Shown one piece after another: positions 3,875 to 21,463 of a DNA stretch of 32,000 nt (position 1 is its first letter; every line of letters starts with the position of its first letter). The notes under the pieces were generated by a model. The model was not told where the DNA came from. It did not search any database and saw nothing but the letters and a program-made list of their open reading frames with translations. The stretch covers positions 30,001-62,000 of the forward strand of contig NZ_NVQC01000023.1 of NCBI RefSeq assembly GCF_003044035.1, read 5' to 3'. The position numbers and the translations under genes were made by a program. The DNA comes from Candidatus Methylomirabilis limnetica (lineage in GTDB: Bacteria; Methylomirabilota; Methylomirabilia; Methylomirabilales; Methylomirabilaceae).

Positions 3875-3911
3875 CACACTTGTGAGCTTGTCCTGTAAAT
3901 GTCTTCTTGTG

Positions 3912-3987
3912 CTTCGACAGGCTCAGCACGAACGGGAAAAAGTTAATGTTTTCCATGCCCATGCCGTTCGCCCTGAGCGCGTCGAAG
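3912..3987. repeat. REP-like palindromic intergenic element
   Basis: The 24-nt arms CTTCGACAGGCTCAGCACGAACGG (3912-3935) and CCGTTCGCCCTGAGCGCGTCGAAG (3964-3987) are inverted complements (20/24 by eye), separated by 28 nt. There is no ORF. Confidence 0.5.
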
Positions 3988-4054
3988 GGTGAACGGGGGT
4001 ATGCAGGACAGGCTCTTGTAGCTGTTGAATCCTGCGAAAAAGGATCAGGTAAGA

Positions 4055-4164
4055 GTGCTTAAACATCGGGTTCTCTTCGATGAACAGACGATTGCGGTAC
4101 GGGTATAGGAACTGGCGCGGGTAATCGCTCAGGATCTGCCGGAGCCGACGCCGGTCCTGCTCGG
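4055..4164 (+). pseudogene. Decayed 5' fragment of hpt (duplicate of 21620-21729)
   Basis: Hand alignment with the start of the intact hpt gene gives 17 mismatches in 110 nt. Similarity begins at the GTG start codon. There is an in-frame TAG at 4106-4108. A perfect 21-nt block CCGGAGCCGACGCCGGTCCTG lies at 4139-4159 and at 21704-21724. Confidence 0.75.
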
Positions 4165-4177
4165 TCCAAATACCCGA

Positions 4178-4441
4178 GTGAACATCCAGTCGTCAGATTC
4201 CTCGACGAACATCGTTAACGTCGAGACGTCGGCGCTCTTCGAGGCACTGCGCAAGAACCTGGATGGGTCCATATCCGATCATGCATTGCAGCAGCGGCTT
4301 CGTGAAACTGTAGACGCGATGCAAGTGTCTGCGGGTACTTGCAGCTTCTCGGAGCGGTACAAGGACTTCATTGCCTTGGCGGCTGACCACGTCACTGTCT
4401 TCGCGCCGTTCTTGCCTGCACTTACACAGCTCTTGCTGTGA
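4178..4441 (+). CDS. Hypothetical protein (87 aa, helical) or read-through artefact
   Basis: ORF with a GTG start and no obvious RBS. It is in the same frame as the hpt fragment: the frame is open from 4109, right after the TAG. No family was recognised. Confidence 0.3.
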   Translation: MNIQSSDSSTNIVNVETSALFEALRKNLDGSISDHALQQRLRETVDAMQVSAGTCSFSERYKDFIALAADHVTVFAPFLPALTQLLL

Positions 4442-4585
4442 CGGGGAGGCATGTGCGGTCGACGCAAAGCAGCGACCGCCCAACTTCGCGCTACAGCAGA
4501 CCGGGTGCTCACGTTGTTCGTGCTCCAGCCGCTGACCGAAGCGTTAGGCTGGAAATGATTGAAATGCACTGGAAGAGGAGATGCC

Positions 4586-5782
4586 ATGTCAAGAGACAAG
4601 AGAAAGCAAATCATTCAAGACATTGAGAAGAAAAGAGATTCCAAAGTCATTACGTACATCACGAGTGATCGTGCGAACCTTCAGGTCATGATCAGTCATG
4701 ATGTGGTCTCGATTATCCACGACCATATCTTGATGCTCAAGGAAGAAGCACGCGCAAAACTGGACTTGTTTATCTACAGTCGAGGCGGTGCTAGCGACGT
4801 TCCTTGGACATTGGTCTCAATGTTCAGAGAATATTGCCATGAAGGATCCTTCAGCGTGCTCATACCGTATCGCGCGCACAGCGCAGCGACAGTCATCTCG
4901 CTTGGTGCAGATGAGATTCTGATGACAAAAAAGGCAGAGCTGGGACCAATCGACGCCACAATGACGACCGGTCCGTATAATCCGACTGAAGGAGACACTA
5001 GAAATCGTCTGCCGGTTTCAGTGGAAGATGTAACAGGATATTTCTCCCTACTTGACAGATTTGGTTGTGAGCGCGCAGACGAGAAAATGAAGGGATTCGA
5101 GCAACTGACAAACAAAGTCCACCCACTTGCCCTTGGCGCGGTGAGCCGACTTCTTGAGGAAACAAAGCTTGTGGGTCTTCGACTGTTAAACACAAGAGCG
5201 AAACCTTTTTCTGAAGAAGAGAACCATGAGATCATCCGGAAACTTTCTTCGGAAGTTTACTCTCACAGCCACACGATCAACCGTACTGAGGCAATAAAAT
5301 ATCTTGGTCTGAAACAGGTCAGGAATGCTGAAGACGCGACCTTGGAGAACGATCTGTGGAGCCTCTATCTTGAATACAGGGACATGTTCCAATTAGAAAA
5401 TCCTTTCAATCCAGAGGAACACTTGGTTGCTAACAACCTAGAGGAGAACACATGGGACAACTTGAATCTTGCCTGTATCGAGAGTGCTGACCGCTTGGAT
5501 GTGTGCCGCAAGTCAATCAGAGTCAAACGCCTGCGCCAAGTTCCACCCACGATCAACTTAAACTTGACCAATATCCAGTTTCCTGTCATAAATCTGCCGA
5601 ATTTGCAACCCAACATGAATCCCCAGCAAATTCAGGCTCTTGTTCAGCAGATGGCAAATGCCACCATGCAACAGATATTGAACACGGCAGTACAGAATGC
5701 GATAAATGAATTAATGAAATCGCTCCCTCAGATAGGATTTGAGCACGTCTCGCTTAATTCTGGGTGGGTGAAGGAGGCATGA
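4586..5782 (+). CDS. ClpP/crotonase-fold S49-like serine peptidase (SDH, 'serine dehydrogenase proteinase' family) with Q/N-rich C-terminal half
   Basis: 398 aa from ATG 4586, with GGAG 5 nt upstream; the ORF opens at 4559. The N-terminal 200 aa carry VITYITSDR, LDLFIYSRGG and YRAHSAATVISLGADEILM, which resemble Pfam SDH_sah from memory. About 42% GC, clearly below the flanks. Confidence 0.65.
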   Translation: MSRDKRKQIIQDIEKKRDSKVITYITSDRANLQVMISHDVVSIIHDHILMLKEEARAKLDLFIYSRGGASDVPWTLVSMFREYCHEGSFSVLIPYRAHSAATVISLGADEILMTKKAELGPIDATMTTGPYNPTEGDTRNRLPVSVEDVTGYFSLLDRFGCERADEKMKGFEQLTNKVHPLALGAVSRLLEETKLVGLRLLNTRAKPFSEEENHEIIRKLSSEVYSHSHTINRTEAIKYLGLKQVRNAEDATLENDLWSLYLEYRDMFQLENPFNPEEHLVANNLEENTWDNLNLACIESADRLDVCRKSIRVKRLRQVPPTINLNLTNIQFPVINLPNLQPNMNPQQIQALVQQMANATMQQILNTAVQNAINELMKSLPQIGFEHVSLNSGWVKEA

Positions 5783-5976
5783 TCATGAACGAACAAAATT
5801 CTTGGAGTGTTTCATCCATGTCTCTTGAGAATCAGGAGCACAATGACCTCAGTGCTCTTGCTGGTCGCTGGAATGAGAATCTTCACGTCACGGTCTCTCT
5901 CCCTAGCACTGTGACACGAGGCCCTATCGTCGACCACATGACGACTCAAGAGAGCAGGAGTTTCTTCGCGTTTTAA
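5779..5976 (+). CDS. Small hypothetical protein (65 aa), translationally coupled to the peptidase
   Basis: The ATG at 5779 overlaps the peptidase TGA (ATGA). AAGGAGG at 5771-5777 lies very close to the ATG. AT-rich like the upstream gene. No family was recognised. Confidence 0.4.
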   Translation: MIMNEQNSWSVSSMSLENQEHNDLSALAGRWNENLHVTVSLPSTVTRGPIVDHMTTQESRSFFAF

Positions 5977-6035
5977 AAGATACTTCAGAATTTCTTTTAG
6001 CCAAGAGAGATGAATATAAACCATAAATCCTCCAA

Positions 6036-6080
6036 CCAACGGATCGAGCGGGCGCTGTGAACCGCGCCGCTCATCCTTGG
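6036..6080 (+). other. Bulged 17-bp stem-loop immediately 5' of the group II intron (terminator-like or attC-like target structure)
   Basis: CCAA[C]GGAT[C]GAGCGGGCG - loop CTGTGAAC - CGC[G]CCGCTCATCCTTGG. It has 17 bp and three single-nucleotide bulges. No U-tract follows. The intron starts 3 nt downstream. Confidence 0.6.
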
Positions 6081-6083
6081 CAT

Positions 6084-6755
6084 GTGTGCCAGGCATGACA
6101 CAGAGCGAGCGAGGTGCAAGTCCCCGCGCCAGGTTCTCGCGGAGCCGAAGGCTAGGAGAAGGGCAAGGGCGTCACCGTGAGGTGGGGTCTGGAGGAAGCC
6201 CAATCCAAGAGCGCGGGGCGACGAACAGGAACCGGATACGAGGTGTGGGACCACCCGGGAGGAACTGGCACGTGACCGCGAAGTCCTCCATCCGCAACGG
6301 GGTGTGCGTTATACATCCGGCGTCTGCGCGCCAAACATTCTGTGTCGTATCCTGAGAGACCTGCCTGCTGTCCGCAGGAGCGGACTGAGGACGGGGAGAC
6401 CCGACCTGAACGGCAGGCAGAAGTCAGCAGAGGGCAGAGGAGGTGGAGGCAACGAGCCGGGACCGGTTGTCCGGAGGACCCTGGAGGACTCACCCCACCG
6501 AAGGCCCAAACAGTTCCTGCAAGGGATGAAGAGAGAGGAGTCGTTGCCTGGCGTGGAGCGGTGAGATAGCATCCGGCGAGGTGTTGGGCTTGCGTCCGGC
6601 ATCTGGGATGAACTTGCGGCTGGTGCACTGGGAGAAGACGCTCCGGTTGGGGTGCGCATACCACCCTGACTGAATCTGCCGAACCGCCGTATACGTGATC
6701 CGTATGTACGGTGGTGTGGGAGGGGGGAGGCCGTGAGGCCTCCCCCTATCCCGAT
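6084..6755 (+). mobile_element. ORF-less group II intron ribozyme, class C (IIC)-like
   Basis: The 5' end is GTGTGCC. D1 motifs are GAGGTGCAAGTCCCCG, GCAAGGGCGTCACCGTGAGGTGGGGTCTGGAGGAAGC and GAAGTCAGCAG. Domain V at 6684-6714 (CCGCCGTATACGTGATCCGTATGTACGGTGG) has a CGC triad and a 2-nt bulge. Domain VI at 6718-6752 has bulged A6748, 7 nt from the 3' end ...CCCGAT. There is no RT-sized ORF. It closely resembles my memory of the Oceanobacillus iheyensis IIC intron. Confidence 0.8.
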
Positions 6756-6866
6756 TAGGCCGACCGACGAACCACTGGGAATGCACAGACCATGGCACCT
6801 GCACAACGCGAACAACTCATCAAGCGCTTCGAACGCGACTCCCTCACGCCGCCTCGGAGTAACGAC

Positions 6867-7712
6867 ATGAACAGCGAGCAGAACAGGAAGGAGTCAACGG
6901 GTCAGACTGGCGAACCCCTCGCCATTCAGTTCCGGCAGTTCTGCCTTGCATACCGCGGACCCAAGGGTAAGCCGCTCCTCCAAGTGCTTCAAGATGTCTC
7001 GCTTTCCATTCGCCCTGGCGAGTTTATTACGATTGTCGGCCCCAGCGGATGCGGCAAGACAACACTGCTCCGGGTGGTTGCCGGCCTTCTCGTTCAAGAA
7101 GAAGACGACGTTGTCATCACCGGTTCACTGCGCGTCTTCGATATGGCCCCTCTGGAAGCGAAGCGCCAGCGTACGTTCGCCTTCACATTTCAGAACCCCG
7201 TCTTGTTGCCCTGGCGCACGGTTCGCCAGAACGTTGCGCTTCCCCTGGAAATCACGCACGAATCCGAAACGCCCGACTCCCAGCAAATCGACGCGATGCT
7301 GTCCATGGTCGGCATTGGCGACTTCAGTTGCTCCATGTCCGCCCAACTTTCCGGCGGAATGCAGCAACGCGTTAATCTCGCCAGGGCACTTGTACAGGAA
7401 CCACGCATCCTCCTGATGGACGAACCCTTTGGCAGCCTAGACGAGGTCACACGCGAGCGCCTGAACTTCGAGCTTCTGCGCATTCACCGGCTGAAGAAAC
7501 AGACGATCCTCTTCGTAACCCACAATCTGACCGAAGCCGCACTGCTGGCGGACCGCGTTCTTGTTCTGAGCAAGCGGCCGTCCACGATTCGCGAAGTGCT
7601 TCCAATTGGTCTTCCGGAAGAAAGGACGGACGACACCCTCCTTTCTCCGGAATTTCTGGCACACGTCAGAAGGGTCCGGGACGTTTTCACGCGCGAGGAG
7701 ACCGCAACATGA
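6867..7712 (+). CDS. ABC transporter ATP-binding protein (NitT/TauT, SsuB/TauB-like)
   Basis: Walker A GPSGCGKTT, signature LSGGMQQRV, Walker B ILLMDEPF. The likely start is ATG 6867 (GGAG 8 nt upstream); the ORF opens at 6792. Confidence 0.85.
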   Translation: MNSEQNRKESTGQTGEPLAIQFRQFCLAYRGPKGKPLLQVLQDVSLSIRPGEFITIVGPSGCGKTTLLRVVAGLLVQEEDDVVITGSLRVFDMAPLEAKRQRTFAFTFQNPVLLPWRTVRQNVALPLEITHESETPDSQQIDAMLSMVGIGDFSCSMSAQLSGGMQQRVNLARALVQEPRILLMDEPFGSLDEVTRERLNFELLRIHRLKKQTILFVTHNLTEAALLADRVLVLSKRPSTIREVLPIGLPEERTDDTLLSPEFLAHVRRVRDVFTREETAT

Positions 7713-8467
7713 GGCGCGTTCTTCCAGCCGTGGCCTTCATCGTTCTGGTTCTCGCCGTATGGGAAGGAGTGGTCAAACTGTTCCATGTTCCCGAGTACCT
7801 TCTCCCCGCTCCCTCGATTGTTTTGCACCGCCTCGTTGGCATGAATAGCGTGCTTCTTGCCCACACTTCAATTACCGCGATGGAATCGGCACTCGGCTTC
7901 GCTCTCGGGACGGTATTCGGAATCCTGCTGGCGGTCGCGTTTGTTCACTCCCGCACAATGGAAATGGGCGTGTATCCCTATGCCATCGCCCTCAAAACCG
8001 TTCCCATCGTGGCAATCGCACCGCTTCTCATTGTCTGGTTCGGCAACGGCATCCTGCCGAAAGTAATCGTGTCGGCCATTATTTCATTCTTCCCAGTCGT
8101 AGTGAACACGACAAAGGGACTCCGCAATGTGGACGCGGAAGCCTTCGACCTCTTCGACTCCATGTCCGCCAGTCGCCGGCAGGTATTCTTCAAACTCCGG
8201 GTTCCGTCGTCCCTGCCATATCTGTTCGCTGCCCTCCGTATATCTTCGACCCTCGCTGTCATCGGCGCCATTGTGGGGGAGTTCTCCGGCGCGGACCGCG
8301 GGTTGGGTTTCTTCATCATGATTTCGTCGCACCGTCTTGAGACGGTGGATATGTTCGTCGGGATACTTCTCTCGTCCCTACTGGGGATTCTCTTCTTCTA
8401 CAGCGTCGCGCTGATAGAACGATTGGTCATTCCGTGGGGACGAGGCAAAATCGGGGAAGCAGGTTAA
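7709..8467 (+). CDS. ABC transporter permease (SsuC/TauC-like, BPD_transp_1)
   Basis: 252 aa with about 6 TM segments. ATGA overlap with the ATPase gene. The typical EAA-like loop region is present (TTKGLRNVDAEAFDLFDSMSASRRQVFFKLRVP). Confidence 0.85.
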   Translation: MRRVLPAVAFIVLVLAVWEGVVKLFHVPEYLLPAPSIVLHRLVGMNSVLLAHTSITAMESALGFALGTVFGILLAVAFVHSRTMEMGVYPYAIALKTVPIVAIAPLLIVWFGNGILPKVIVSAIISFFPVVVNTTKGLRNVDAEAFDLFDSMSASRRQVFFKLRVPSSLPYLFAALRISSTLAVIGAIVGEFSGADRGLGFFIMISSHRLETVDMFVGILLSSLLGILFFYSVALIERLVIPWGRGKIGEAG

Positions 8468-8478
8468 CGGAGGTAAGC

Positions 8479-9480
8479 ATGAAAAAGCAGGTAGTCATCG
8501 GTATCGTAGTTGTTGTCGCGGTCATCCTTGGCTTTGTCGCCATCAAAGGGCGAAAGGGCACAACCGGCCCAGGCACGACCCCGGAAATCACCAAGGTCTC
8601 AGTCCGTATGAAGTGGTTTTTCGCCGGAACCATGACGGGCTGGTTTGCCGGCAAGGAAGAAGGGATCTTCAAACAACACGGCATCGACCTGACCATCAAT
8701 CCGGGTGGACCCGACAACAACTCGGTCAAACTCGTAGCGGCTGGAACGGATCTGTTTGGAGTCGCTGGCGCGGATGAAGTGCTCCTCGGGCGAGCGAAAG
8801 GAATCCCTGTCGTGGCTATCGGCGTCCTTTTCAAGGAATCACCAATCTGCTTCATCGCCAAGGAAGCAAAAGGAGTGCGAACACCCGCAGACTGGGCAGG
8901 AAAGACAGTCGAGGTCAGTTACGGCAGTAACGCCGAAGTTGAATATCGGGCGCTCGTTGCCAAGTTCAACGTGCAGAACATCAAGGAAGTGCCATACACG
9001 TTTAACCTCATTCCCTTCATTGAAGACAAGGTTGACGTTTCTGTGGCATACAGAATGGATCAGGTTGTTACGCTTCAACGCAAAGGCATCGCACTCTCGA
9101 TTATCACAGCCAAGGAACACGGCATCAATCCTTACGGGGATGTCGTTATAACTACCGAGAAGACGCTTCAGGAACGGCCTGAACTTGTTCGGCAGTTCAT
9201 GTCCGCAGTCGTTGAGAGCCAACGCTGGGCCATCCAACATACATCCGTTGCCGTAGAACACCTCGTTTCTCAAACAGGGAGCACGCTCAAGGCGGACAAC
9301 GAAGGCGCCGTTTGGCAAGCGACCGTACCATTCTTAGTGGCTGATGGTGGGGCCGAAGCCATTGGCGTTATGTCAACCGGTCGATGGAACGAGACAGCCA
9401 CGATTCTGGTGGACTACGCTAAATTGGACCCGACAACAGATGTCAAGAAAGCCTTCGTCAACATCATTGCCGCGAAGTAG
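8479..9480 (+). CDS. ABC transporter substrate-binding protein (NMT1/THI5-like, SsuA/ThiY-type)
   Basis: 333 aa from ATG 8479 (GGAGG upstream). N-terminal signal/anchor MKKQVVIGIVVVVAVILGF. The periplasmic binding fold is similar to NitT/TauT-family SBPs. Confidence 0.8.
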   Translation: MKKQVVIGIVVVVAVILGFVAIKGRKGTTGPGTTPEITKVSVRMKWFFAGTMTGWFAGKEEGIFKQHGIDLTINPGGPDNNSVKLVAAGTDLFGVAGADEVLLGRAKGIPVVAIGVLFKESPICFIAKEAKGVRTPADWAGKTVEVSYGSNAEVEYRALVAKFNVQNIKEVPYTFNLIPFIEDKVDVSVAYRMDQVVTLQRKGIALSIITAKEHGINPYGDVVITTEKTLQERPELVRQFMSAVVESQRWAIQHTSVAVEHLVSQTGSTLKADNEGAVWQATVPFLVADGGAEAIGVMSTGRWNETATILVDYAKLDPTTDVKKAFVNIIAAK

Positions 9481-9491
9481 CGAGGCAAGAC

Positions 9492-11438
9492 ATGGCAAAT
9501 CAAGAACAGCGGGCAATTGTGCGGTCACGTATCAAGCGCTCGTTTGCTGATCGCTACCGAAGCGCTGCAAGTTGGATGGCGAGGCCCAAGACGGTTGCAT
9601 TGGTAATCGTGGCTGGATATGTCGTCATCTTCATTGGTTGGCTTTTCTATCTAGCCGTTCAACCGGCAGTACCCGGCAGTACCCAGAAACTCTTCTCGTG
9701 GCAGCGTTTCAACGAGGACACAGGCCCATTCACACTGATGTGGAATACCCTTGTTGTGGTCATCACGTTTCTGGCGTCAATGCCGCACCGGAAGTGGGAG
9801 GACGCCCTTCGCTTGCGGTCATCGCAAAAGGAACGAATACGCATTCTTGACAACTTCCAGCCATCCCAATCGATGATTGAGTTCTTTGACAACCGGTCCA
9901 TCTACGATGCAATCCTCACAATGTTGTACCGACTCAACGATGAAGGGGACCATGGACCAGGCAAAACTCATTACAATGTGTGCATGCTCCTCTGCTCGCC
10001 TGCGTTGGACTACTGTGGGAACGAAAAGTCGCGCTCTCCCGGAAGCAAGCAGTCCGAGTGGGGCCTTGAGTTTCGGGACATCGTGGAGAAACTTGTGGCA
10101 CACAAGGACATTGAGTTCGACATTTGCCACCTTCCTGTCGAACCGTTCTCAGGGGTCAACGCACTTCGAGACTTCATCTCCGCGTTGGCCACATACACCA
10201 TTCAATCCGAAGACCAGTTGAAGTCCGACGATGCCGTGAAAGCGGATGCTGAGTTTCAGACCATATTCGGTTCGATATGGGATCGGTCTGGATTGGTCGC
10301 CAATGACTTCGCTAATTGGTCAACCGACGTAGACAAGAAAGACCGATTTCACGTCAAGACGCATACCATCAACATTCCGTTTCAGGTAGTCCTCGTTGAT
10401 AGCAAAGATGTCATGGAAGTCGTTGTTTCCTTTGCTGGCCGGGAGGTTCTGGAAAGAGAACAGAGGCGGGGGGTCAAAGGCTTCTACAGCAGCGACCCTT
10501 ACGTAGTTAAGACGTTCCGCGAGGTGTTTCGCATGTATGTGGAATCAAAGGGAAGAATCCCGTACATACCGAGTCATACGAGCAAGGTTTCAGACTCGCA
10601 CGACGCAATCGGGCCGCACATCATCCCAGGCTACTACAACAAACTCGTTGGCCCGCTTCGCGTGTTGCCCGAGACCTTCTCACCGGTAGTCGGGAACTCG
10701 ACGAAGTTCACAGTGTGGCTTCTTGACAAACTCATCACCACGGGCGATCCAGACGACCCCGATTGCTGGGGTAAGAAAGTGAAGAAGATTCTTGATATCG
10801 GGTCTGGTACTGGGGTGCTCGCACTTGCAACGGGAGCGATCTTGCAGGCCCGCTTTAAACGCACTGACTACACAATCACAGCGATTGATTCATGTCCGTA
10901 CGCGCAAAGGGTCCTCCGGTTGAACACCACGTCAGACCCGCGGATCAAAGTCAATCCCTGGACTCTCCGTTTCACCGCGAACAAGGAGGGTGAGGTTACG
11001 GACGCATGGTTCGAAGACGACAGCAACCAGAGGGTTGCCATTGAAGGTGACTTTGCTGGTTTCGATTTGGTCACAGGGGATCTTCCATTTGTTCACGCGC
11101 GGAAGCGCACGGAAAAGGACCTTCGGTTTCTCGATCTCGATCATCGCCTTCATCAAGCACTGTTCTGGGTTGCGGCCCAGACCAAGCTACTTACCCCTGC
11201 CGGATTACTCGTTACGGCGTTTTCAAGTCTCGGTGGTCCCGAAGACATTGCGGAGTTCGAGCGCCATCTGCGCAACAACGCACTTCAGGTCATTCAGCGC
11301 GTTGAGTTCCACGAATCCGGCTACATGTGGATGGTCTATGTCCTGATGAAGAAGCCGGGGTATGACGCTTACCAAGGGAAGCTATGGTGGAAGGTTCTTG
11401 ATGCTGAACGATATGTACAGTGGGATCCGAAGACCTGA
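9492..11438 (+). CDS. Membrane-anchored protein with unassigned central domain and C-terminal class I SAM-dependent (amino-)methyltransferase domain
   Basis: 648 aa. Two N-terminal TM helices (about aa 35-57 and 80-98). Motif I ILDIGSGTGVLAL, motif II ITAIDS, and motif IV-like DLVTGDLPF (a variant of the N/DPPY/F motif). Starts 12 nt after the SBP gene. About 50% GC. Confidence 0.6.
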   Translation: MANQEQRAIVRSRIKRSFADRYRSAASWMARPKTVALVIVAGYVVIFIGWLFYLAVQPAVPGSTQKLFSWQRFNEDTGPFTLMWNTLVVVITFLASMPHRKWEDALRLRSSQKERIRILDNFQPSQSMIEFFDNRSIYDAILTMLYRLNDEGDHGPGKTHYNVCMLLCSPALDYCGNEKSRSPGSKQSEWGLEFRDIVEKLVAHKDIEFDICHLPVEPFSGVNALRDFISALATYTIQSEDQLKSDDAVKADAEFQTIFGSIWDRSGLVANDFANWSTDVDKKDRFHVKTHTINIPFQVVLVDSKDVMEVVVSFAGREVLEREQRRGVKGFYSSDPYVVKTFREVFRMYVESKGRIPYIPSHTSKVSDSHDAIGPHIIPGYYNKLVGPLRVLPETFSPVVGNSTKFTVWLLDKLITTGDPDDPDCWGKKVKKILDIGSGTGVLALATGAILQARFKRTDYTITAIDSCPYAQRVLRLNTTSDPRIKVNPWTLRFTANKEGEVTDAWFEDDSNQRVAIEGDFAGFDLVTGDLPFVHARKRTEKDLRFLDLDHRLHQALFWVAAQTKLLTPAGLLVTAFSSLGGPEDIAEFERHLRNNALQVIQRVEFHESGYMWMVYVLMKKPGYDAYQGKLWWKVLDAERYVQWDPKT

Positions 11439-11465
11439 ATATCAGCAGGAACGAAAGGGGGCCTC

Positions 11466-11885
11466 ATGCCGACAATAACACGTGTTGCAGATAGAGATGC
11501 TCGCTGGCAACAGTCCACGTTTGATCCCAAGGCTTACAAAGTGGAGTTGTGGGAGGGCCGCAAGATTGGCCAAGGGAGAACGTTGCTGTCCCGCTACTAT
11601 CCCGGCCAATGCGTCGCCCCGCAGCGATCCAGTGCAGCATGGGACATCTTCATTTTGGAAGGCGACATGACCGTCAATGGTGAAAGGATAGGCTCTGGCG
11701 ACCATGTCTTGATCGGAGCAGGCGAATCCTGCTCTTGGTCAACTGAATCGGGTTGTTTGTCTTTGGTCTTCGTTAGAACTGATCACGAGTGGGTGCAGTC
11801 TGGCAATGCCGGGGGAGACCCCAGCAGCGAAAACGTGGAGAGGTGTGAGCAAGACATGGCGAGCAAGAGCGAGAAATCCCTTTGA
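11466..11885 (+). CDS. Cupin-domain protein (ChrR-like cupin)
   Basis: 139 aa. AAGGGGG RBS. Beta-rich with WDIFILEGDMTVNGERIGSGDHVLI. Assigned by eye only. Confidence 0.5.
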   Translation: MPTITRVADRDARWQQSTFDPKAYKVELWEGRKIGQGRTLLSRYYPGQCVAPQRSSAAWDIFILEGDMTVNGERIGSGDHVLIGAGESCSWSTESGCLSLVFVRTDHEWVQSGNAGGDPSSENVERCEQDMASKSEKSL

Positions 11886-12059
11886 AGACGGGGGACGCGG
11901 ATAACCTCCTCCTGAAGCACAGCGTCATTGCGCTGGGCTGGGTGGAGATGGGCGATATTTGACAAGTGAGCGAGCAGAAACGATCAGTGAAGGGCCTAAC
12001 AAATCTTTCCACCTACCATTTTTTCGCAACGCTCCCAAATGCAGGTGAACTAAATCGTT

Positions 12060-12276
12060 GAGGCTGTAGAAAAACCTCCTCGCGAAGAGCACTCGCAATA
12101 GGACGCGATATGAGCAACGATCGTCCGAAATCTGACCCCTTTCCAACGTCGGTACGATCGCGGCCTCTCGCGGCTCAGAGAGGGCCACAGGCTCGGCACC
12201 ATTGGGCAGCAAGAAAACTCGTGGCCTGTTGCCGAGGTCTCGAAACTCGCGTTTTTCGGGGTTTTTCTACAGCCTC
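12060..12276. repeat. 217-bp element closed by perfect 17-bp inverted repeats (MITE-like or structured RNA)
   Basis: GAGGCTGTAGAAAAACC (12060-12076) and GGTTTTTCTACAGCCTC (12260-12276). GTT lies directly outside both ends. Several nested internal hairpins are present (CGATCGTCCGA/TCGGTACGATCG, GGCCTCTC/GAGAGGGCC, CTCGGCA/TGCCGAG). Confidence 0.5.
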
Positions 12277-12499
12277 GTTATGCGCCTGCACGACCCACTA
12301 AAGTTTGTTCCCACCGAGCCGGCCTGGTGGACTGCATCGGCGGGCCATCTGCTGGGCGAGAAAGAGAATGAGGCCGCCATGAATCGCTTCCCCGGGCCGC
12401 TGCTCACATACGTGGTGCCGGACTGCGACGCTCTCCTCTAGCGACGGCACAAGCTCATGGCCGCGAAGATCAAGACCAATATGAGGACGGTGCAAACCC

Positions 12500-15022
12500 A
12501 TGGTGTCTCTGACTGAATCCGAGAAGAGCGAGATCATCCGACTTCTCAGCACGGGCCATCCGCTGCCGGAGCAGTGGCGGTATCGGCTGTTCCCCAGCGG
12601 CCATCGCGCGCAGGAAACCGGCAAGGAATACCGGCTGGTCTATGACGGCAAGCTCAAGCGTGAGGAAGTGCTGGCGCAGACACCTGCCGCACCGTGGCAA
12701 CTGGTGCGGGAGTTTTGCGCGGAGCGACCGCATGAGGACGGCTGGCGGAATCTGCTCGTGTGGGGCGACAACCTGCTCGCGCTGCGGGAACTGCTCTCGG
12801 ACCAGCAGGGGCCGAATCGCTTCTGCACGCGGGGCAAGATCAAGCTCATCTACATCGACCCGCCGTTTGCGACGCGGCAGGATTTCATGAAGGACAAGGA
12901 GAAGGCCTACCGCGACAAGGTCCTTGGCGCACAGTTCATCGAGTTCCTTCGCCGCCGGCTCATCCTCCTCCGCGAACTCCTCGCCGACGACGGCAGCATC
13001 TACGTCCATCTGGACACAAAGAAGAGCCACTATCTCAAAGCGGTGCTGGATGAATGTTTCGGCGAGGAAAACTTCATCAATGAAATCGTCTGGCAGAGAA
13101 CGGCTTCACACAACGACCCTGGCCGATACGGCAACGTCCACGACATTCTTTTCTTCTACAAGAAAGGAGATGAATGCATCTGGAATGCGCCAAAAATGGA
13201 GCAGTCGAAGGACTATATTGAAAAGTTCTTCGTATATGCCGAGTCGCTGGATAAGAAGCGTTGGGTCAAACTGCGCCGAGGCGAATCTCCACCTGAGAAC
13301 TGGCAACGTTATCGTTTAGGCAACTTCGCTAGCCCCCATCCACGACCGAACTTGACCTACAACTATAAGGGCTATCGGCCACCGGCCAACGGGTGGAAAG
13401 TGGCACTCGCACGAATGGTTCAAATGGATGCTGAAGGGTTGCTGCACTTCCCACTGAAGAAGGACGGGAGAATTCAGCCAAAACAATACCTGAGGGACAC
13501 GCTTGGAAACAAACCGGTCCCTGATGTTTGGTTCGGCATCAGTCCGATTCAGGCGCAGACAGCCGAGAAAACTAACTACCCCACGCAGAAGCCCGAGGAA
13601 CTTCTCCGGCGCATTGTTTCCGCCTCCTCCAACGAAGGCGACATCGTCCTCGACTGCTTCGCGGGCAGCGGCACAACCCCGGCTGTTGCAGAAAAACTAG
13701 GCCGGCGTTGGATCGCGATGGATTGCGGGAAACTAGCCATTTACACCACGCAGAAGCGGCTGTTCTCTCTCACAACCGCCATCGGAGCGGCGAAGAAGGA
13801 CGACCGCGCCGAACCGGAACGGGTGGAGGATTGGGCAGAGCACCTCAAGGGCGCACCCGGCGTCCTGCTCATCACCGAGAAGGCCCGCAAGGGCGAGTGC
13901 CAGGTGACGTTGGACCTGCTCCATGATCTCGCCGCTCTCGCGAAGAAACATGACCTCGTAAAGAAGGATGCGACGCTGTCGTTGGTCTGCCCGGAGGATA
14001 AGCTGGAAATCCCTGCGGGCCGCCTGAAAGAACCGGAGGACGGACACGGTGCCAAGTGCATCAAGGTGGACGGGATCGAGTTCCGCCTCTCAGTCATCGC
14101 GCCCAAGGACAAGCCGGACAAGGAACGTCCTTTACCCGCGAAGGAGTTCGCCCTTTACCGAGCGGGCGTCTATGACATGGCGACCATCAAGGCACTGCCG
14201 TGGACAGATTACCAGCCGTTTGTCCTGAAGCTCTTTGGCGTTCGCGAGCACCAGCACGCACGGTACGGGTTCCACCTCGACGGTTACATCAACACGCATT
14301 CCGCCCTTCTCTGGAATTATCCAGACCACAAGGCATTCACGCTGGATTACGGCTACGTGGACGACCTGCACAGGACGGTGCGAGGCAAACCAGGCGAGCG
14401 TTTCTACATCATCGCCCCGGTCGTGGCGATGGCGTTCGCAGAGGACGAGGTGACGCGGGGCGAGACGACGTATGTCTTTCTCAAAGTGCCGCTGTCGGTC
14501 CTGCTCCGGCTCATCGAGCGCAAGGTGCCGGCCGCTCTCAAACAGCCTGCAAGGGAGGAGGATGTAAACGAGGTGATTGACGCGGTGGGATTCGACTTCA
14601 TCTCGCAGCCGCAGGTGGCGTGGAAGGCGAAGAAGGAGAGCCGACCGGGAGAGCTGTTCGCCGACTACCTGCTGGAACTCTCCGAGTTCCGCGCCCAGAC
14701 GCTCGCGACTGACCCGGAGGATTTCCAGAACTTTGAGACGTTCTCAATGGCGCTGGTGGACCTGGACTACGACGGGGATGTATTCAAGTTGAGCCGGGTG
14801 TTCTGGGGTGAGGACGTGCTCAAGGCGGCGGGCGGGCTGGAGAAGGCCGAACGGCTGGAGCTGCGCATCGCGGAGCCGGAATTCACGGGTAAGCAGATGA
14901 TGGTGATCCTCTGCGACCGCTACGGGAACGAGAAGACGTTGCTGCTGTCGAAGACCGACTTTGAAGGCAAGCGCCCACGGTCTGATAAGAAGGTTGCCAA
15001 GAAACGGAAGAAAACAAAATGA
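12500..15022 (+). CDS. mod: Type III restriction-modification methyltransferase (Mod, beta-class N6A/N4C) with long C-terminal extension
   Basis: 840 aa. Motif IV IYIDPPF, then NYPTQKPEELLRRI, then motif I VLDCFAGSGTT (order IV before I). About 440 aa follow motif I, ending in the Lys-rich tail KRPRSDKKVAKKRKKTK. ATGA overlap with res. Confidence 0.85.
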   Translation: MVSLTESEKSEIIRLLSTGHPLPEQWRYRLFPSGHRAQETGKEYRLVYDGKLKREEVLAQTPAAPWQLVREFCAERPHEDGWRNLLVWGDNLLALRELLSDQQGPNRFCTRGKIKLIYIDPPFATRQDFMKDKEKAYRDKVLGAQFIEFLRRRLILLRELLADDGSIYVHLDTKKSHYLKAVLDECFGEENFINEIVWQRTASHNDPGRYGNVHDILFFYKKGDECIWNAPKMEQSKDYIEKFFVYAESLDKKRWVKLRRGESPPENWQRYRLGNFASPHPRPNLTYNYKGYRPPANGWKVALARMVQMDAEGLLHFPLKKDGRIQPKQYLRDTLGNKPVPDVWFGISPIQAQTAEKTNYPTQKPEELLRRIVSASSNEGDIVLDCFAGSGTTPAVAEKLGRRWIAMDCGKLAIYTTQKRLFSLTTAIGAAKKDDRAEPERVEDWAEHLKGAPGVLLITEKARKGECQVTLDLLHDLAALAKKHDLVKKDATLSLVCPEDKLEIPAGRLKEPEDGHGAKCIKVDGIEFRLSVIAPKDKPDKERPLPAKEFALYRAGVYDMATIKALPWTDYQPFVLKLFGVREHQHARYGFHLDGYINTHSALLWNYPDHKAFTLDYGYVDDLHRTVRGKPGERFYIIAPVVAMAFAEDEVTRGETTYVFLKVPLSVLLRLIERKVPAALKQPAREEDVNEVIDAVGFDFISQPQVAWKAKKESRPGELFADYLLELSEFRAQTLATDPEDFQNFETFSMALVDLDYDGDVFKLSRVFWGEDVLKAAGGLEKAERLELRIAEPEFTGKQMMVILCDRYGNEKTLLLSKTDFEGKRPRSDKKVAKKRKKTK

Positions 15023-17607
15023 GCCTCCATCTGCGTATCGCTGACCAGGTGCTGAAGGCAGAGGACACACGCGAAGCCACCGAGGCGGTGGTCCACAAGT
15101 ACGACGCATTCCTGAACCTGCTCTGCGCGGATCACTATTCCTTCCAGCGCGACGCCGTGCGGGAGTCGCTTCGGTTGCTCGTGTCCGATAAGTATCCGGG
15201 CCTCGAGCGGCTCGCGCGAGAAAACTGGAACGCCCGCGAGGCCATCCGCCAGCGGCACGAGAGCGTGGACGCCTACCTCGCCAAGATGCCGCTGCGAGAC
15301 AGGAAATCGGTCTCGCTGGATCTGGCCACGGGCACGGGCAAGAGCTTCGTGATGTATGCGTTGGCGGCGATTGCGCTCGCCGAAGGTCTAGCGGAGCGGG
15401 TGCTCGTGCTCTGCCCGTCGTTGACGATCGAGGAGGGATTGCTGGAGAAGTTCATCGCGCTGGCCGGCAACGGCGAGTTATCCGGGATTATGAAGGAGCT
15501 GGGCGCTGCGGTGGCGATCCCCGGCATCAAGCGTGGCAACGAGACGATTCAGTCCGGTGACATCTGTGTGGAGAACATCCACGCGGTTTACGAGAACACC
15601 GGCTCGTCCATCCGGGACAGCTTCCGGGGGCAGGGTGCGCGGACGCTTGTGCTGAACGACGAGGCGCATCACTTGTTCAGTCCGCCAGACCGCAGGTTGA
15701 AGGAGTGGATGAAGTTTCTCCAGCACGCTGATTTCGGCTTTCGACAGATCGTAAACGTCACGGGCACGCCTTACGTGGACGACGATTACTTTCCGGACGT
15801 GGTGTTTCGTTACGGGCTGAAGCAGGCCATTGCCGACAAGGTCGTGAAGAAGCCGAACTACAAGCTGGAGGACACCTACTCGGCGCAGGATTGGCAGAAG
15901 ACCTACGCGATCCACCAGAAAAACAGGAAGGACTACGGCAAGGAAGTGAAGCCCATCTCCATCGTCGTTACTCAGGAGATCGCGCGGTGCGTGGAGGTGT
16001 GGCGCGAACTGGTGGACTTCCTCGCTACCAAGGAGGGGATCAGCCGCGAGGTGGCGGAGAGGAAGGCGATTTGGGTGACCTCGGGTGTGCCGTCCAGTGG
16101 CGACGCCAAGCCCCGAGTCGAAGCAGCCTATGCCCCACGAGACGACAAGGATTCACCGGAGAAGCGCCGGAAGGAGAACTTGGCTTCGCTGAAACAGGTG
16201 GATGATGCCGGCAGTCCGGTGGAGTGGATCGTCTCGGTAAGCATGCTCACGGAAGGCTGGGATGTGAAAAATGTCTTCCAGGTGGTGCCACACGAATCGC
16301 GTGCGTTTTCGTCCAAGCTGCTCATCGCGCAGGTGCTGGGCCGCGGGTTGCGGGTGCCGCCGGGGTTATCCAAGGAGCCCCTGCTGACGATCAATAACCA
16401 CGAGGCGTGGTCGGAGGAAGTCGGCAACTTGCTCAAGGAAGTGCTGGAAGTGGAGAACACGCTCTCGTGGGGATACGACCCGCGTCGGCGCAAGTATGTC
16501 TTCCCGCTACACAACCTGACTTACGAGCCGGAGCAGAGAGGCGTGGAAGCGAAGCGTGAGCAGGCGCGGCCGCCGGACGTGACCTTCCTTCCCCAGGATC
16601 GGAAAACAACGGAGTATTCGACGTTCTCGGAGACCGGAACGCTGGCAGTAGAGATACAACATCACGATCTCTTTGAGATTGAGGATGCGGCGAAGCTCAT
16701 GCGCCTGTTCCTCCGGGAGAAGGACGAGAAGATTGCGGCTGCCTGGCCCAAGAAGCGGCTTAAAGAGTTCATCGTCAGTCGGCTGAGCGGCGCTGGGCAG
16801 GACGCGACCTTCCTTAGCAGGCAGAACTACCTTTTGCTACAGCACAGTTTCTCGCCGATGTTCCGAGAACTCGACAAGGAGCATCCGCGCATGAGCCAGA
16901 CAGCGAAAGACGTAGTGCTCGTGGACCTGACTGTGGTGCCTCGGCAATCCTTCTCCGAAAGCATGCTCAAGGAGCACGGTTCGATATGGACTGTGAGGGA
17001 AGAGTCTCCTCCGTATGGCGGTCAGGAACTGCATCTATGGGAGCAGTATCAGCAGTTCCGTAAACTGTACGCGGACTATCCTGACGGAGTGTCCGACCAG
17101 GCAAAGGCCATTAGCTCCAAAATCCATAATGTTGACGTGGGTAAGTTCAAGTTGCCGTGGAATGTTCACTACGTCACCCACGAGCCGGAGAGGAAGTTCT
17201 CCGATTTGCTATTCGAGAACGCCGGCTTGTTTGACGCGTTCGCGAAGATGCCGAACATGGGCGGGTACGCGTTCCCGTATTCCTACAAACCTGCCAAAGC
17301 CGCCAAGACCCACGTGGCGAACGAGAACTTTAACCCGGACTTCTTCATCAAGCTGAGCGCTCGGCACGACATTGTGGTCGTCGAGATTAAGGCGGAAGGA
17401 GATGACTCCAATCGAAATCGAGCCAAGTGCCGAGACGGACTGAAGCACTTCGAGACGCTGAGCGAGCGGTTGAAGGAATCGGGCGAACCGTGGCGCTACC
17501 ACTTCTATTTCCTTTCACCGGAGGACTACACCAACTTCTTCGAGCACGTCCGCAACCAGAGCTACGCCGGCTGGCGGTCTGGGTTAATGCAAGAGTTGGA
17601 CGCATGA
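15019..17607 (+). CDS. res: Type III restriction enzyme Res subunit (SF2 helicase plus PD-(D/E)xK nuclease)
   Basis: 862 aa. Helicase motif I LDLATGTGKS, motif II LNDEAHH, SMLTEGWDVKNV, and motif VI QVLGRGLR. C-terminal nuclease-like FNPDFF...VVVEIKAEGD. Confidence 0.85.
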   Translation: MSLHLRIADQVLKAEDTREATEAVVHKYDAFLNLLCADHYSFQRDAVRESLRLLVSDKYPGLERLARENWNAREAIRQRHESVDAYLAKMPLRDRKSVSLDLATGTGKSFVMYALAAIALAEGLAERVLVLCPSLTIEEGLLEKFIALAGNGELSGIMKELGAAVAIPGIKRGNETIQSGDICVENIHAVYENTGSSIRDSFRGQGARTLVLNDEAHHLFSPPDRRLKEWMKFLQHADFGFRQIVNVTGTPYVDDDYFPDVVFRYGLKQAIADKVVKKPNYKLEDTYSAQDWQKTYAIHQKNRKDYGKEVKPISIVVTQEIARCVEVWRELVDFLATKEGISREVAERKAIWVTSGVPSSGDAKPRVEAAYAPRDDKDSPEKRRKENLASLKQVDDAGSPVEWIVSVSMLTEGWDVKNVFQVVPHESRAFSSKLLIAQVLGRGLRVPPGLSKEPLLTINNHEAWSEEVGNLLKEVLEVENTLSWGYDPRRRKYVFPLHNLTYEPEQRGVEAKREQARPPDVTFLPQDRKTTEYSTFSETGTLAVEIQHHDLFEIEDAAKLMRLFLREKDEKIAAAWPKKRLKEFIVSRLSGAGQDATFLSRQNYLLLQHSFSPMFRELDKEHPRMSQTAKDVVLVDLTVVPRQSFSESMLKEHGSIWTVREESPPYGGQELHLWEQYQQFRKLYADYPDGVSDQAKAISSKIHNVDVGKFKLPWNVHYVTHEPERKFSDLLFENAGLFDAFAKMPNMGGYAFPYSYKPAKAAKTHVANENFNPDFFIKLSARHDIVVVEIKAEGDDSNRNRAKCRDGLKHFETLSERLKESGEPWRYHFYFLSPEDYTNFFEHVRNQSYAGWRSGLMQELDA

Positions 17608-17639
17608 GCGCAGCAGCGGTCGCTCAGCGCTACCGCGGT

Positions 17640-17765
17640 CTAGCCGACCTCCCCCGGCGGGGTGCAAGCGTCCGCCTCTCGCAGGATCCGGCGCTTCTCC
17701 TCACCCGTATATCGCCGTCTGGTGACCTTCTCCAGCACCTCTACCTCCTTCGCTGTGGTCCCCAT
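17640..17765 (-). pseudogene. IS3-family transposase OrfA N-terminal remnant
   Basis: A minus-strand 41-codon ORF, MGTTAKEVEVLEKVTRRRYTGEEKRRILREADACTPPGEVG-stop. It resembles the HTH start of IS3-family OrfA (RRR(Y/F)(T/S)xEEKxxIL...PGE(V/K)G). It is truncated against the res 3' end. Below the ORF-track cutoff. Confidence 0.5.
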
Positions 17766-17849
17766 TTCCACTTCCACTCTACCTATACGCTACCCGTTTC
17801 CTATCTCGCCCTCTACTCGAAACTCAGGGGAGGCGAGTGTCTCACCCAT

Positions 17850-17957
17850 GTTGACACAGAGGGGCACTACCGGTTCACGGCGGAGGAGTTGGATTTCATC
17901 CTGAACTACGGCATCAAATACCGCCTCGGCCGCGATGCCGGAAGTGAGGACGAATGA
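17850..17957 (+). pseudogene. Orphan gene 3' tail, copy A (VDTEGHYRFTAEELDFILNYGIKYRLGRDAGSEDE-stop)
   Basis: About 75 nt are near-identical to 19254-19330. No upstream gene body is present. From memory this tail is typical of the C-terminus of RM-type DNA methyltransferases (uncertain). Confidence 0.5.
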
Positions 17958-18078
17958 GCACGCGCGAGCAGAACGAAAGGAAGTACGTGCAGTGGGATGA
18001 TCTACCAGGCGGTTTCGGCGAAACCGCCCTACCCCGTCATTGACCACGGTAGGGCGCGATCGCCGAGCGCGCCGGCCC

Positions 18079-18132
18079 TGGAACTACGACATCAAATACC
18101 GCCTCGGCCGCACCTCGGAAACCGAGGAATAA
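18079..18132 (+). pseudogene. Orphan gene 3' tail, copy B (WNYDIKYRLGRTSETEE-stop)
   Basis: AACTACGACATCAAATACCGCCTCGGCCGC matches copies A and C. It has its own stop codon. Confidence 0.45.
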
Positions 18133-18150
18133 TAGGAAAGGAAACCCAGG

Positions 18151-18249
18151 AGCAAACAACTACCCATTGCCGCCGCCAACAACACGTTCGAGCGTATCAA
18201 ACGCGTCAACCAATCCGGCGGAGAATTCTGGTCCGCCCGCGAAGCTTAA
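18151..18249 (+). pseudogene. N-terminal stub of a DinD/Bro-N-like gene
   Basis: SKQLPIAAANNTFERIKRVNQSGGEFWSAREA-stop resembles the start of DNA-damage-inducible protein D (..FExIKHxxxxGxEYWSARxL..). No start codon and a premature stop. Confidence 0.45.
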
Positions 18250-18266
18250 TCTGGTGTAGTGTTGTT

Positions 18267-18581
18267 TTATTCAACTTCCCACTCGCCGGGTGTCAGGTGT
18301 TCAAGAATGACCCTGCTGCCGTGGATGATGGCGACAATGAAGCAGACTTGTTCTTTTACTTTGTAGATGATGCGATAGGAACCGTAAATGAGTTCTCGGA
18401 TTGTCTCATCGTTAAATTCCGGAACCATCCGGCCGCTCAGAGGAGCGTGCTCAAGCCTTCGAGGCGCGCGGACAACACGGATGCCGAACCGCTCGGCGTA
18501 TACTGCCGAGTCACGGGCGATATACTCGATAAGGTCGTGAAGGTCCTTTAGTGCCGGTTCGGTCCAGATGACTTCAGCCAT
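18267..18581 (-). CDS. RelE/ParE-family type II toxin
   Basis: 104 aa. The IWTEPALKDLHDLIEYIARDS...RMVPEF.....RELIYGSYRIIYKV pattern is typical of ParE/RelE toxins. It lies downstream of, and overlaps, a small antitoxin-sized ORF. Confidence 0.8.
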   Translation of the reverse strand: MAEVIWTEPALKDLHDLIEYIARDSAVYAERFGIRVVRAPRRLEHAPLSGRMVPEFNDETIRELIYGSYRIIYKVKEQVCFIVAIIHGSRVILEHLTPGEWEVE

Positions 18582-18754
18582 TCCTGAACCCTGTTTTCGG
18601 CCTCCACCTGTGAAACCAGGCGGCCTTCGTCAATAGCCTTGAGTCCATGCTCCACCTTCTCTCGGACATAGAGGTGATAGTGGATATCTTCAAGAGTTGA
18701 ATCCTCGGGCAGGGTTTTTATGAGTTCAATTACTTGGTCTCTGACGTGAGTCAT
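18548..18754 (-). CDS. Putative type II antitoxin
   Basis: 68 aa from ATG 18754 (GGGAGG 8 nt upstream; the ORF track starts at GTG 18763). A small acidic helical protein immediately upstream of the toxin, overlapping it by 34 nt. Confidence 0.6.
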   Translation of the reverse strand: MTHVRDQVIELIKTLPEDSTLEDIHYHLYVREKVEHGLKAIDEGRLVSQVEAENRVQEWLKSSGPNRH

Positions 18755-18953
18755 GTTGCACACCTCCCTTGGGTGATTGGACCTCTACAAATCTTGGGCT
18801 TGCCCGCACAAGTAGAATCGCACACATTGCCACGGTGATCAATCCTTTGGGAAGAATACTTCGTTTATAGATTTACGACGATGCGGGCAGGCGGGTCGAG
18901 ACGCAAGAGAAATCCCCGTGGATAAAGGCCATCAGAAAGGATAGGATGTCGCC

Positions 18954-19214: not shown

Positions 19215-19218
19215 ACCC

Positions 19219-19353: not shown

Positions 19354-19356
19354 GCC

Positions 19357-20487: not shown

Positions 20488-20493
20488 TATCCC

Positions 20494-21452: not shown

Positions 21453-21463
21453 ATGCATCAGAC

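Follow-up and report, generated by a model that had tools for sequence, protein, structure and literature searches.

Genetic context and identity of the intron

We analysed a window of 32,000 nucleotides from Candidatus Methylomirabilis limnetica (contig NZ_NVQC01000023.1, positions 30,001 to 62,000 of the forward strand), an NC10 bacterium, and concentrated on a group II intron without an open reading frame (ORF) at 6084-6755 of the window, on the plus strand. Five proteins of the window match M. limnetica entries exactly (PTL35453, PTL35454, PTL35475, PTL35477 and PTL35478). Upstream of the intron lies an AT-rich gene cassette (4545-6083, plus strand), whose coding sequence at 4586-5782 specifies an SDH/ClpP-like serine protease (Pfam PF01972) and which is bounded by two attC-type sites, attC_1 and attC_2. 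Downstream, the operon of an ATP-binding cassette (ABC) transporter starts 37 nt beyond the intron (111 nt by an alternative gene call), with the intron in sense orientation to it. A position between an AT-rich peptidase cassette and an ABC operon had been given by the original prediction, which was made from the sequence without database searches, and these coordinates agree with it.

The intron is 672 nt long, starts with GTGTG at 6084-6088, ends with CCCGAT at 6755, and is 100% identical in two ENA contigs (L003 and L004). Three Rfam models match it. A gathering-threshold scan of the whole window returned RF02001 at 6171-6345 (89.3 bits, E=7e-17) and RF01998 at 6385-6506 (39.3 bits, above gathering), both of which model group II intron domains I to IV (D1-D4), while a permissive scan returned the D5/D6 model RF00029 at 6682-6755, a match that ends at exactly 6755 and scores 39.9 bits, just under the cut-off of 40 (E=3.6e-6). 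The similarity of relatives begins at GTGTG and ends precisely after CCCGAT, so that the family alignments stop at both ends of the element. The group II ribozyme predicted for 6084-6755 was thus recovered with the same limits, and the Rfam comparison that had been proposed for it gave two models above gathering and one at 39.9 of 40 bits.

Domains I to III occupy 6084-6507 (plus strand; RF02001 and RF01998) and include the 5' GUGUG and the conserved segment GAAGUCAGCAG (6420-6430), which we take to be the J2/3 region. Domain V (6684-6714, plus strand; RF00029) has CGC at the triad position (6685-6687), a 5-nt loop and a 2-nt bulge formed by A6704 and T6705 (AU in the RNA), and domain VI (6718-6752, plus strand) carries the bulged branch-point A6748, 7 nt from the intron 3' end. 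The GUGUG start, the limits of domain V, its CGC and 2-nt bulge, and the bulged A6748 had all been foreseen at these positions.

GTDB representative genomes were scanned with a D5 pattern, which yielded 33 loci from many phyla. In a D5/D6 alignment of 32 family members, 93.6% of the cells are paired, against at most 58% for controls with a slid 3' partner; ten pairs show compensatory changes, and none of 500 shuffles reached the observed measures. The D5 helix is paired in 99% of cells and the main D6 helix shows compensatory changes in 8 of its 12 pairs, so the covariation falls mostly in D6, the region that the search pattern had left free. The predicted folding of the two domains is therefore backed by covariation.

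The window ribozyme is 74-86% identical to introns whose intron-encoded protein (IEP) matches the GsI-IIC reverse transcriptase (RT). At several loci from the D5 scan, a window-like 5' part (84-86% identity) and a window-like 3' part (87-90%) are separated by about 1.9 kb, and domain IV contains an ORF of about 410-460 aa. The IEP of locus L031, the closest full-length relative, has the GsI-IIC RT (PDB 6ar1) as its best match, along the whole protein (E=1.6e-138), and the IIC maturase of E. rectale as the next; with 409-448 aa and no extra C-terminal domain it has the class C architecture (RT and X, no En), as assessed on relatives. Because the relatives' IEP matches the GsI-IIC RT end to end, the intron family belongs to bacterial class C, or IIC, the class that had been predicted. 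The clean boundaries, and the clean deletion junction described below, rule out both a twintron and a longer intron whose RT had been displaced. The intron is an unusual member of already known kinds and no new type of element.

Loss of the reverse-transcriptase reading frame

Domain IV of the window intron (6508-6680, plus strand) is a remnant in which the pre-RT0 leader of the vanished IEP gene is joined, through a junction filler, to a post-stop linker. As far as about 6648 it can be aligned with the leader of the full-length introns, and from about 6668 on with the linker that follows their stop codon; it also holds a conserved CAUCC...GGAUG block. By tblastn with N-terminally extended IEP homologues, we detected, at 6607-6648 (plus strand), 14 codons left over from the N-terminal extension of the IEP (DELAAGALGEDAPV), with 79% identity to aa 21-34 of P0085; an earlier tblastn for IEP remnants with RT-core-only queries had given no significant match in the window. 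The homology breaks off about 7 codons short of the MERVL/RT0 motif and is taken up again in the short stretch that links the IEP stop codon to D5. The deletion junction carries a filler of about 20 nt, GGGGTGCGCATACCACCCTG (6649-6668, plus strand), which is diagnostic of this ΔORF lineage and common to locus L034 and to both copies on contigs L041-L043. Judged from these alignments, the window intron is a descendant of an IIC retroelement of about 1.9 kb, from which nearly the whole RT/maturase ORF was deleted while the ribozyme domains and the D4 leader were kept. No RT is encoded anywhere in the window, which leaves that half of the original prediction standing; its description of the intron as ORF-less has to be amended for the 14-codon remnant at 6607-6648. 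A large protein database, searched for an IEP that might act in trans, gave over 8,000 relatives; two of these candidates were looked up, and both belonged to other samples.

Loci L028, L016, L008, L013 and L022 (in Nitrospirae, Terriglobia, Peptococcaceae and other metagenome-assembled genomes, MAGs) hold further ORF-less members of this IIC family. Since their deletion junctions differ, ORF loss is recurrent in the family. At L008 (410 nt), most of D2-D4 is gone as well. In L038 (4713-4880), a full-length relative from the MAG of an uncultured Syntrophus, about 130 additional nt with an N run stand inside domain I; these could represent a scaffolding gap or a nested insertion.

Sibling copies and probable mobility in trans

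The identical ΔORF junction was found at four places, namely, in the window, at L034 and in two copies on L041-L043, so sibling copies, for which the original prediction had proposed to search the genome, exist in a Methylomirabilis MAG and in metagenome contigs. L034, in a Ca. Methylomirabilis MAG, is 95.7% identical over intron positions 441-672, across the junction, and has a different 3' exon. The three JGI metagenome contigs L041-L043 hold two diverged ΔORF copies 1.5 kb apart, each with its own flanks, and one of these contigs and the Methylomirabilis locus L045 share a sample of origin. Short-read assemblies of samples containing M. limnetica break inside the intron at 6171, 6228, 6248, 6688 and 6728, and the 30-mers at breaks 6688 and 6728 hold the ΔORF filler and the D6 3' half with the exon bases TA; such breaks imply at least one further near-identical copy in those communities.

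As for a source of RT, the contig that carries the full-length L031 with its intact IEP has a 3' flank with 98.3% identity to the Methylomirabilis loci L045 and L046. Its record (DATMXF010000016.1; MAG SMAG_U13113) is labelled "Patescibacteria group bacterium", yet a MiaB from the same accession series shows 90% identity or more to the M. limnetica protein, and this bin probably represents NC10 or a mixture. The flank and the MiaB likeness together indicate that a related RT exists in the genus Methylomirabilis. Because one deletion junction occurs at four or more distinct attC-like sites in genomes and metagenomes of NC10, the ORF-less form moved after the deletion, and it was probably mobilised in trans by the IEP of a relative.

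L058 (1526-3458) and L059 (631-2563) have in common a 5' flank (a BrnT/BrnA cassette and hairpin) and a full-length intron, followed by different 3' exons (TATCCGGG versus TGGGTGCC). This difference could be due to recombination between intron copies that joined different cassettes, or to a metagenome assembly chimera across the repeat.

The insertion site and its resemblance to attC

The intron follows a bulged hairpin at 6036-6080 (plus strand), in which L'', loop and L' read CCAA-C-GGAT-C-GAGCG-G-GCGC / loop / GCGC-CGCTC-ATCC-TTGG. It has 17 bp (4+4+5+4) and the single unpaired bases C6040, C6045 and G6051, all in the 5' arm, and its DNA fold has an energy of -16.7 kcal/mol (z = -2.7). No T-tract follows the hairpin, no terminator-like site was found, and consensus scans for promoters and terminators around the intron gave no match. 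The 17-bp stem with three single-base bulges and no U-tract is as had been predicted, and an intrinsic terminator was rejected as the identity of the hairpin for lack of a T-tract.

Upstream of the stem stands an R''-like box of attC_2, CTCCAAC (6030-6036, plus strand; 6 of 7 matches to RYYYAAC). Downstream, the intron splits the R' core into AT (6082-6083, plus strand), the last bases of intron-binding site 1 (IBS1), and TAGGC (6756-6760, plus strand), of which T6756 is IBS3; the relatives have GT in place of AT, with junctions reading CGT/T, where the slash marks the insertion point. Exon-binding site 1 (EBS1) was assigned to the loop GCACGUGA (6268-6275, plus strand), as ACG(U) at 6270-6273, which pairs with the 5' exon end (R)CGU of the relatives. 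In L016 the two partners covary (loop CCGGGU, exon end CCCG), which confirms the assignment. The ligated exon junction of the window is GGCAT/TAGGCC. It had been described as one mismatch away from the integron core GTTAGGC, and the family consensus is indeed GT/TAGGC.

These features recur across the family. All relatives with an intact 5' flank sit 8-13 nt downstream of a GC-rich hairpin and have a 5' exon ending in (R)CGT. The first 3'-exon base is T at 32 of 36 sites, and the 3' exon starts with TRGGC at 10 of 36 (P=2e-19) and with TRRRY at 14 of 32 (P=2e-9); a TRRRY exon after GT means that the ligated junction recreates GTTRRRY, the integron core. An exact RYYYAAC occurs upstream of the hairpin at 5 of the 10 non-plasmid sites versus 7.7% of control positions (P=5e-4), and a box with at least 6 of 7 matches including AAC at 9 of the 10 versus 30% of controls (P=1.5e-4).

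The window site has the order R''-spacer-L'' (with two extrahelical bases)-loop-L'-spacer-R', as in attC(aadA1), in which the plasmid relative pR148 is inserted. The latter reads GTCTAAC AATTC GTT-C-AAGCCG-A-CGCCGC loop GCGGCG-CGGCTT-AAC TCAAGC GT/TAGAT, and the window site reads CTCCAAC CAAC GGAT-C-GAGCG-G-GCGC loop GCGC-CGCTC-ATCC TTGGC AT/TAGGC; the extrahelical C6045 and G6051 lie on the 5' arm, and the spacers measure 4 and 5 nt versus 5 and 6 nt in attC(aadA1). Extrahelical bases on the 5' arm, together with the sense orientation, give the insertion a top-strand polarity. The predicted target, a hairpin resembling the bottom strand of attC, therefore has to be corrected as to the strand, whereas its likeness to attC is upheld by the aadA1 layout, the R'' enrichment, the TRRRY exons and the homology breaks at GTT cores presented next. 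Likewise, the position of the intron is better described as inside the R' core than as 3 nt after the stem-loop.

Comparison of Methylomirabilis loci shows gene exchange at such cores. The unoccupied site attC_1 (4478-4549, plus strand) consists of an exact GCCCAAC, a 58-nt imperfect palindrome and an exact GTTAGGC. Window 4048-4555 is 86% identical to L045 11416-11912, and the homology ends at AGCGTTAG, in the GTTAG core; past it come the protease gene in the window and a ParE cassette in L045. With its intron removed, L031 is 98% identical to L045/L046 downstream of GT/T, across ParE-type toxin-antitoxin genes. Upstream of GT/T, L031 and L045/L046 have different hairpins and genes, yet in both cases the hairpin opens with GCCCAAC and closes with AGCGT. 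Cassette exchange at the G/TT core is thus seen both for attC_1 and for the L031 site, and these breaks at GTT cores mark the AT-rich protease gene (GC content of 43-49% for the cassette versus about 56% for the genome) as a true cassette. Elsewhere, intact family members lie in same-strand arrays of HigB, BrnT/BrnA and PIN toxin-antitoxin genes. The protease cassette also has an antisense ORF of 70 aa (5812-6024, minus strand), which is called as a gene in ENA assemblies and has no Pfam or PADLOC match.

The site could also be read as that of an ordinary terminator-targeting IIC intron, with the hairpin serving as a weak terminator of the protease gene and resembling attC by coincidence. Most IIC introns insert after intrinsic terminators (PMC4424553), the relative L017 sits after a hairpin and T-run, and the window has a degenerate R box, no integrase nearby and an uninformative generic attC scan. 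We consider this explanation improbable, since the hairpin lacks a T-tract and a terminator-like match and begins 254 nt past the protease stop codon, the R'' box and TRRRY are enriched across the family, the layout is identical to that of attC(aadA1), where a relative is inserted, and cassette-type homology breaks occur at such cores in Methylomirabilis.

Condition of the window copy

According to the above-described analysis, we conclude with good confidence that window 6084-6755 is a non-autonomous group IIC intron with its IEP deleted, inserted in sense inside the R' core of an attC-type hairpin, that it represents a form probably moved in trans, and that this copy is probably weakened. 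Several observations weigh against this conclusion. At the target, the attC_2 boxes are imperfect (R'' CTCCAAC 6/7 and R' ATTAGGC 6/7, only 4/7 positions pairing mutually, hence a degenerate R box), and R' starts with A instead of the G required for integrase cleavage. The predicted ligated junction, representing the empty site, had 0 matches in JGI metagenomes, and a naive genome-wide scan for attC (RYYYAAC...GTTRRRY plus folding energy) returned 11 matches versus about 12.6 in shuffles. No IntI1 homologue was detected by tblastn in the window and all fetched loci, nor was an RT found in the window or in any NC10 locus fetched. In the intron itself, the 5' exon ends in CAU, versus CGU in the relatives, which places a C·A mismatch in the middle of the 3-4 bp IBS1-EBS1 pairing; the window copy keeps 91.2% of the consensus D1-D3 pairs (104/114; 10 broken), and the ORF-less siblings L042_A and L042_B are more degraded still. 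Sister genomes offer no comparable orthologous empty site, the whole 3.9-21.6 kb island being absent or different there. Since no IntI occurs in the DNA examined, the array would be at best like a cluster of attC sites lacking integron-integrases (CALIN), and the CAU exon, by turning the G of R' into A, would inactivate the recombination core.

The D1-D3 pairs were counted against a consensus structure derived without the window. By this measure of decay, the ORF-carrying relatives L017, L031, L033 and L037 keep 98-99% of the pairs, pR148 95.6% and L028 93.9%; below the window copy come L016 (90.7%), L042_B (87.6%) and L042_A (78.3%). The EBS1 stem of the window copy has two mismatches, and its RF02001 score is 89 bits versus 100-121 in the relatives. 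D5, D6, the GAAGUCAGCAG segment and both splice-site sequences are intact. The window copy appears mildly eroded and is probably weakened.

How far this erosion has gone bears on another explanation, which is compatible with the intron identity: the element may be an inert fossil, inserted once by a now-absent RT, no longer splicing or moving, and decaying in an intergenic spacer. The C·A mismatch together with the two EBS1-stem mismatches, the pairing of 91.2% versus 98-99% in ORF-carrying relatives, the decay gradient among the ORF-less copies, the RF02001 score and the lack of an IEP in the DNA examined would all fit such a fossil. It is harder to reconcile with the intact D5, D6, GAAGUCAGCAG segment and 5' and 3' ends, with L034 at 95.7% identity in another locus, or with the assembly breaks that imply near-identical siblings in the same samples; moreover, the ORF-carrying integron copy of pR148 likewise has only 95.6% pairing and an EBS1-stem mismatch. 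We therefore regard a fossil as quite possible, though somewhat doubtful.

The position of the intron, sense and 37-111 nt upstream of the ABC start codon, and the physical split of the R' core also allow a co-opted function to be imagined: the intron might be a structured 5' leader through which the ABC-transporter operon is regulated, or, since it splits the core, a "lock" that keeps the cassette junction stable. Such a role is highly improbable in our opinion, given that no selection is evident beyond what a ribozyme would be expected to show, that sibling copies precede unrelated genes, and that the structure is eroding, not conserved.

The genomic island beside miaB

The cassette and the intron are part of a larger variable region. 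In the sister NC10 genome L047, miaB is directly followed by phosphoribosyltransferase, radical-SAM and VKOR genes, which in the window begin at 21620; the region at about 3.9-21.6 kb of the window, missing in L047, is thus a strain-specific island. It spans 3875-21620 (about 17.7 kb), between miaB and the phosphoribosyltransferase gene, and contains the protease, the intron, the ABC transporter, a type III restriction-modification system, a PDC-S02/YhcG nuclease and others. Its flanks show a 117-nt direct repeat of the phosphoribosyltransferase 5' end (4048-4164 and 21613-21729, 84% identical), and short-read contigs break at 3964-3993. L045/L046, from another Methylomirabilis, have a different island in the same position, with ParE and a DUF4011 helicase.

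Two further hairpin-plus-core sites were noticed in the window. One lies at about 12140-12206 (plus strand; TTCCAAC...CCAT/TGGGC), upstream of the type III methylase gene, and the other at about 31563-31640 (minus strand; CAGCCG-A-CCGG...CCGG-CGGCTG ATCGCGGC GT/TAGGC), just upstream of a 409-aa ORF at 30325-31554. They may be more attC-like cassette boundaries, and a naive scan cannot tell such sites from chance.

Other repeats in the window were recorded as well. A coding segment of 53-89 nt (…NYGIKYRLGRD…) occurs three times with 79-91% identity (17861-17955, 18081-18133 and 19254-19348), close to ORF 3' ends in the neighbourhood of the type III restriction gene and ahead of the gene for the YhcG-like nuclease. 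A short repeat with CAGCCTTCAGCCTTCAGCC is present three times in both orientations (24604-24642, 26099-26137 and 27144-27178) and also in L043 (4601-4649); the window copies flank an NnrS/COX1-like gene and come after tRNA-Pro(GGG), and the repeat may be a REP-like (repetitive extragenic palindromic) element. The two tRNA-Pro genes at 27048-27124 (GGG) and 28752-28828 (CGG) are 90% identical and stand 1.7 kb apart, bracketing surE and pcm.

Proposed mechanism and implications

The deletion that gave rise to the lineage, in an IIC element of about 1.9 kb, began about 7 codons ahead of the first RT motif and ended shortly beyond the stop codon. As suggested by IIC biology (PMC4424553) and the family data, the intron ribonucleoprotein (RNP) would reverse-splice into the single-stranded top-strand hairpin, recognizing the stem-loop, 3-4 nt of IBS1 ((R)CGU, with EBS1 ACG(U)) and IBS3 (T). 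The cDNA would then be made by an En-less class C RT, presumably primed at replication forks (PMC4424553). A full-length relative would supply this RT in trans, for which the retained D4 leader may serve as the IEP binding site. As long as it is present, an intron splitting the R' core would be expected to block cassette recombination at that junction.

These observations show that an ORF-less IIC derivative has spread to several sites in the environmental phylum NC10. They also show that sense-strand targeting of the R' core of attC, the "unusual" behaviour of one plasmid intron, is common to a large environmental family as a whole (over 8,000 close IEP relatives), and that Methylomirabilis has cassette-type gene exchange at attC-like hairpins beside miaB. 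The locus would offer a natural system for the trans-mobilisation of IIC ribozymes, for the reading of bulged DNA stem-loops by an RNP and for the effect of introns on cassette shuffling. A broader picture can be put forward only tentatively, and we hold it to be rather unlikely as a whole: NC10 would carry integrase-less integron-like arrays in a variable island adjacent to miaB, a largely overlooked, widespread IIC sub-lineage would home in sense to top-strand R' cores, and its proliferating ORF-less NC10 derivative would depend on the RT of a relative. If this were true, sense-strand introns could lock the junctions of cassettes and, when copies recombine with one another, bring attC sites and new genes together. 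Leon and Roy are said to have put forward a model of cassette genesis, and contigs of the L058/L059 type would then be natural material bearing on it.

Comparison with known systems

The closest annotated relative (59.5% IEP identity, 74% ribozyme identity) lies in a class 1 integron on IncC plasmids, represented by A. hydrophila pR148 (NC_019380), with identical copies in E. coli, Vibrio, Klebsiella and Enterobacter. The gene order in pR148 is intI1-qacL-blaOXA-10-aadA1-intron-qacEdelta1-sul1, with the intron sense to the cassettes; the insertion point, GT/T in the R' core of attC(aadA1), reads TCAAGCGT/TAGAT. The two introns have in common 74% DNA identity over intron positions 1-363, near-identical D5/D6, the EBS1 loop GCACGUGA, the sense orientation to neighbouring genes and the same GT/T insertion point. 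However, the pR148 intron is full length (1838 nt), has an intact IEP and resides in a bona fide class 1 integron beside intI1, whereas the window intron is ORF-less and chromosomal, has an NC10 host and a degenerate R box, and no integrase was found nearby.

An intron of E. cloacae has been described as "unusual", inserted in the top strand in the same orientation as the cassettes and "not a IIC-attC" (PMC7923331). The window family matches this top-strand attC intron in strand and orientation, and we infer that the pR148 plasmid intron is the E. cloacae-type integron intron of the 2012 work cited in PMC7923331 and PMC6591265. Classical IIC-attC introns, in contrast, enter the bottom strand at R'' and run antisense to the cassettes; their consensus is TTGT/T (PMC7923331, PMC3001079). 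The window family shares with them (S.ma.I2 and others) the IIC ribozyme, a bulged attC stem-loop as target, the GT/T of GTTRRRY just 3' of the hairpin, and a short IBS1 with T as IBS3; it differs in using the top strand at R', in its sense orientation to cassettes and in (R)CGT/T versus TTGT/T, of which only GT/T is common. Thus, neither the window intron nor that of pR148 has the strand and orientation of the classical group. The plasmid match H40 was rejected as a classical IIC-attC reference, as it is not in an integron.

With terminator-targeting IIC introns (B.h.I1, the O. iheyensis intron and GsI-IIC), the window intron has in common a class C IEP (in its relatives), a small ribozyme and a stem-loop upstream of a 3-4 nt IBS1. 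The CGC triad of D5 is presumably another trait that it shares with the O. iheyensis intron. Unlike these introns, it has no U-tract, shows the TRGGC motif in the 3' exon and an R'' box upstream, and has lost its ORF.

The nearest parallels for this loss are ORF-less introns acting in trans (cyanobacterial examples and C.te.I1; PMC4424553), which likewise have lost the IEP and kept the ribozyme, have full-length kin in the genus and occur in several copies. The window intron differs from them in its IIC class, its attC-like targets and the basis for trans action, which in this case is suggested by the shared deletion junction. It would appear, therefore, to join the short list of bacterial ORF-less group II introns that seem to depend on the IEP of a relative.

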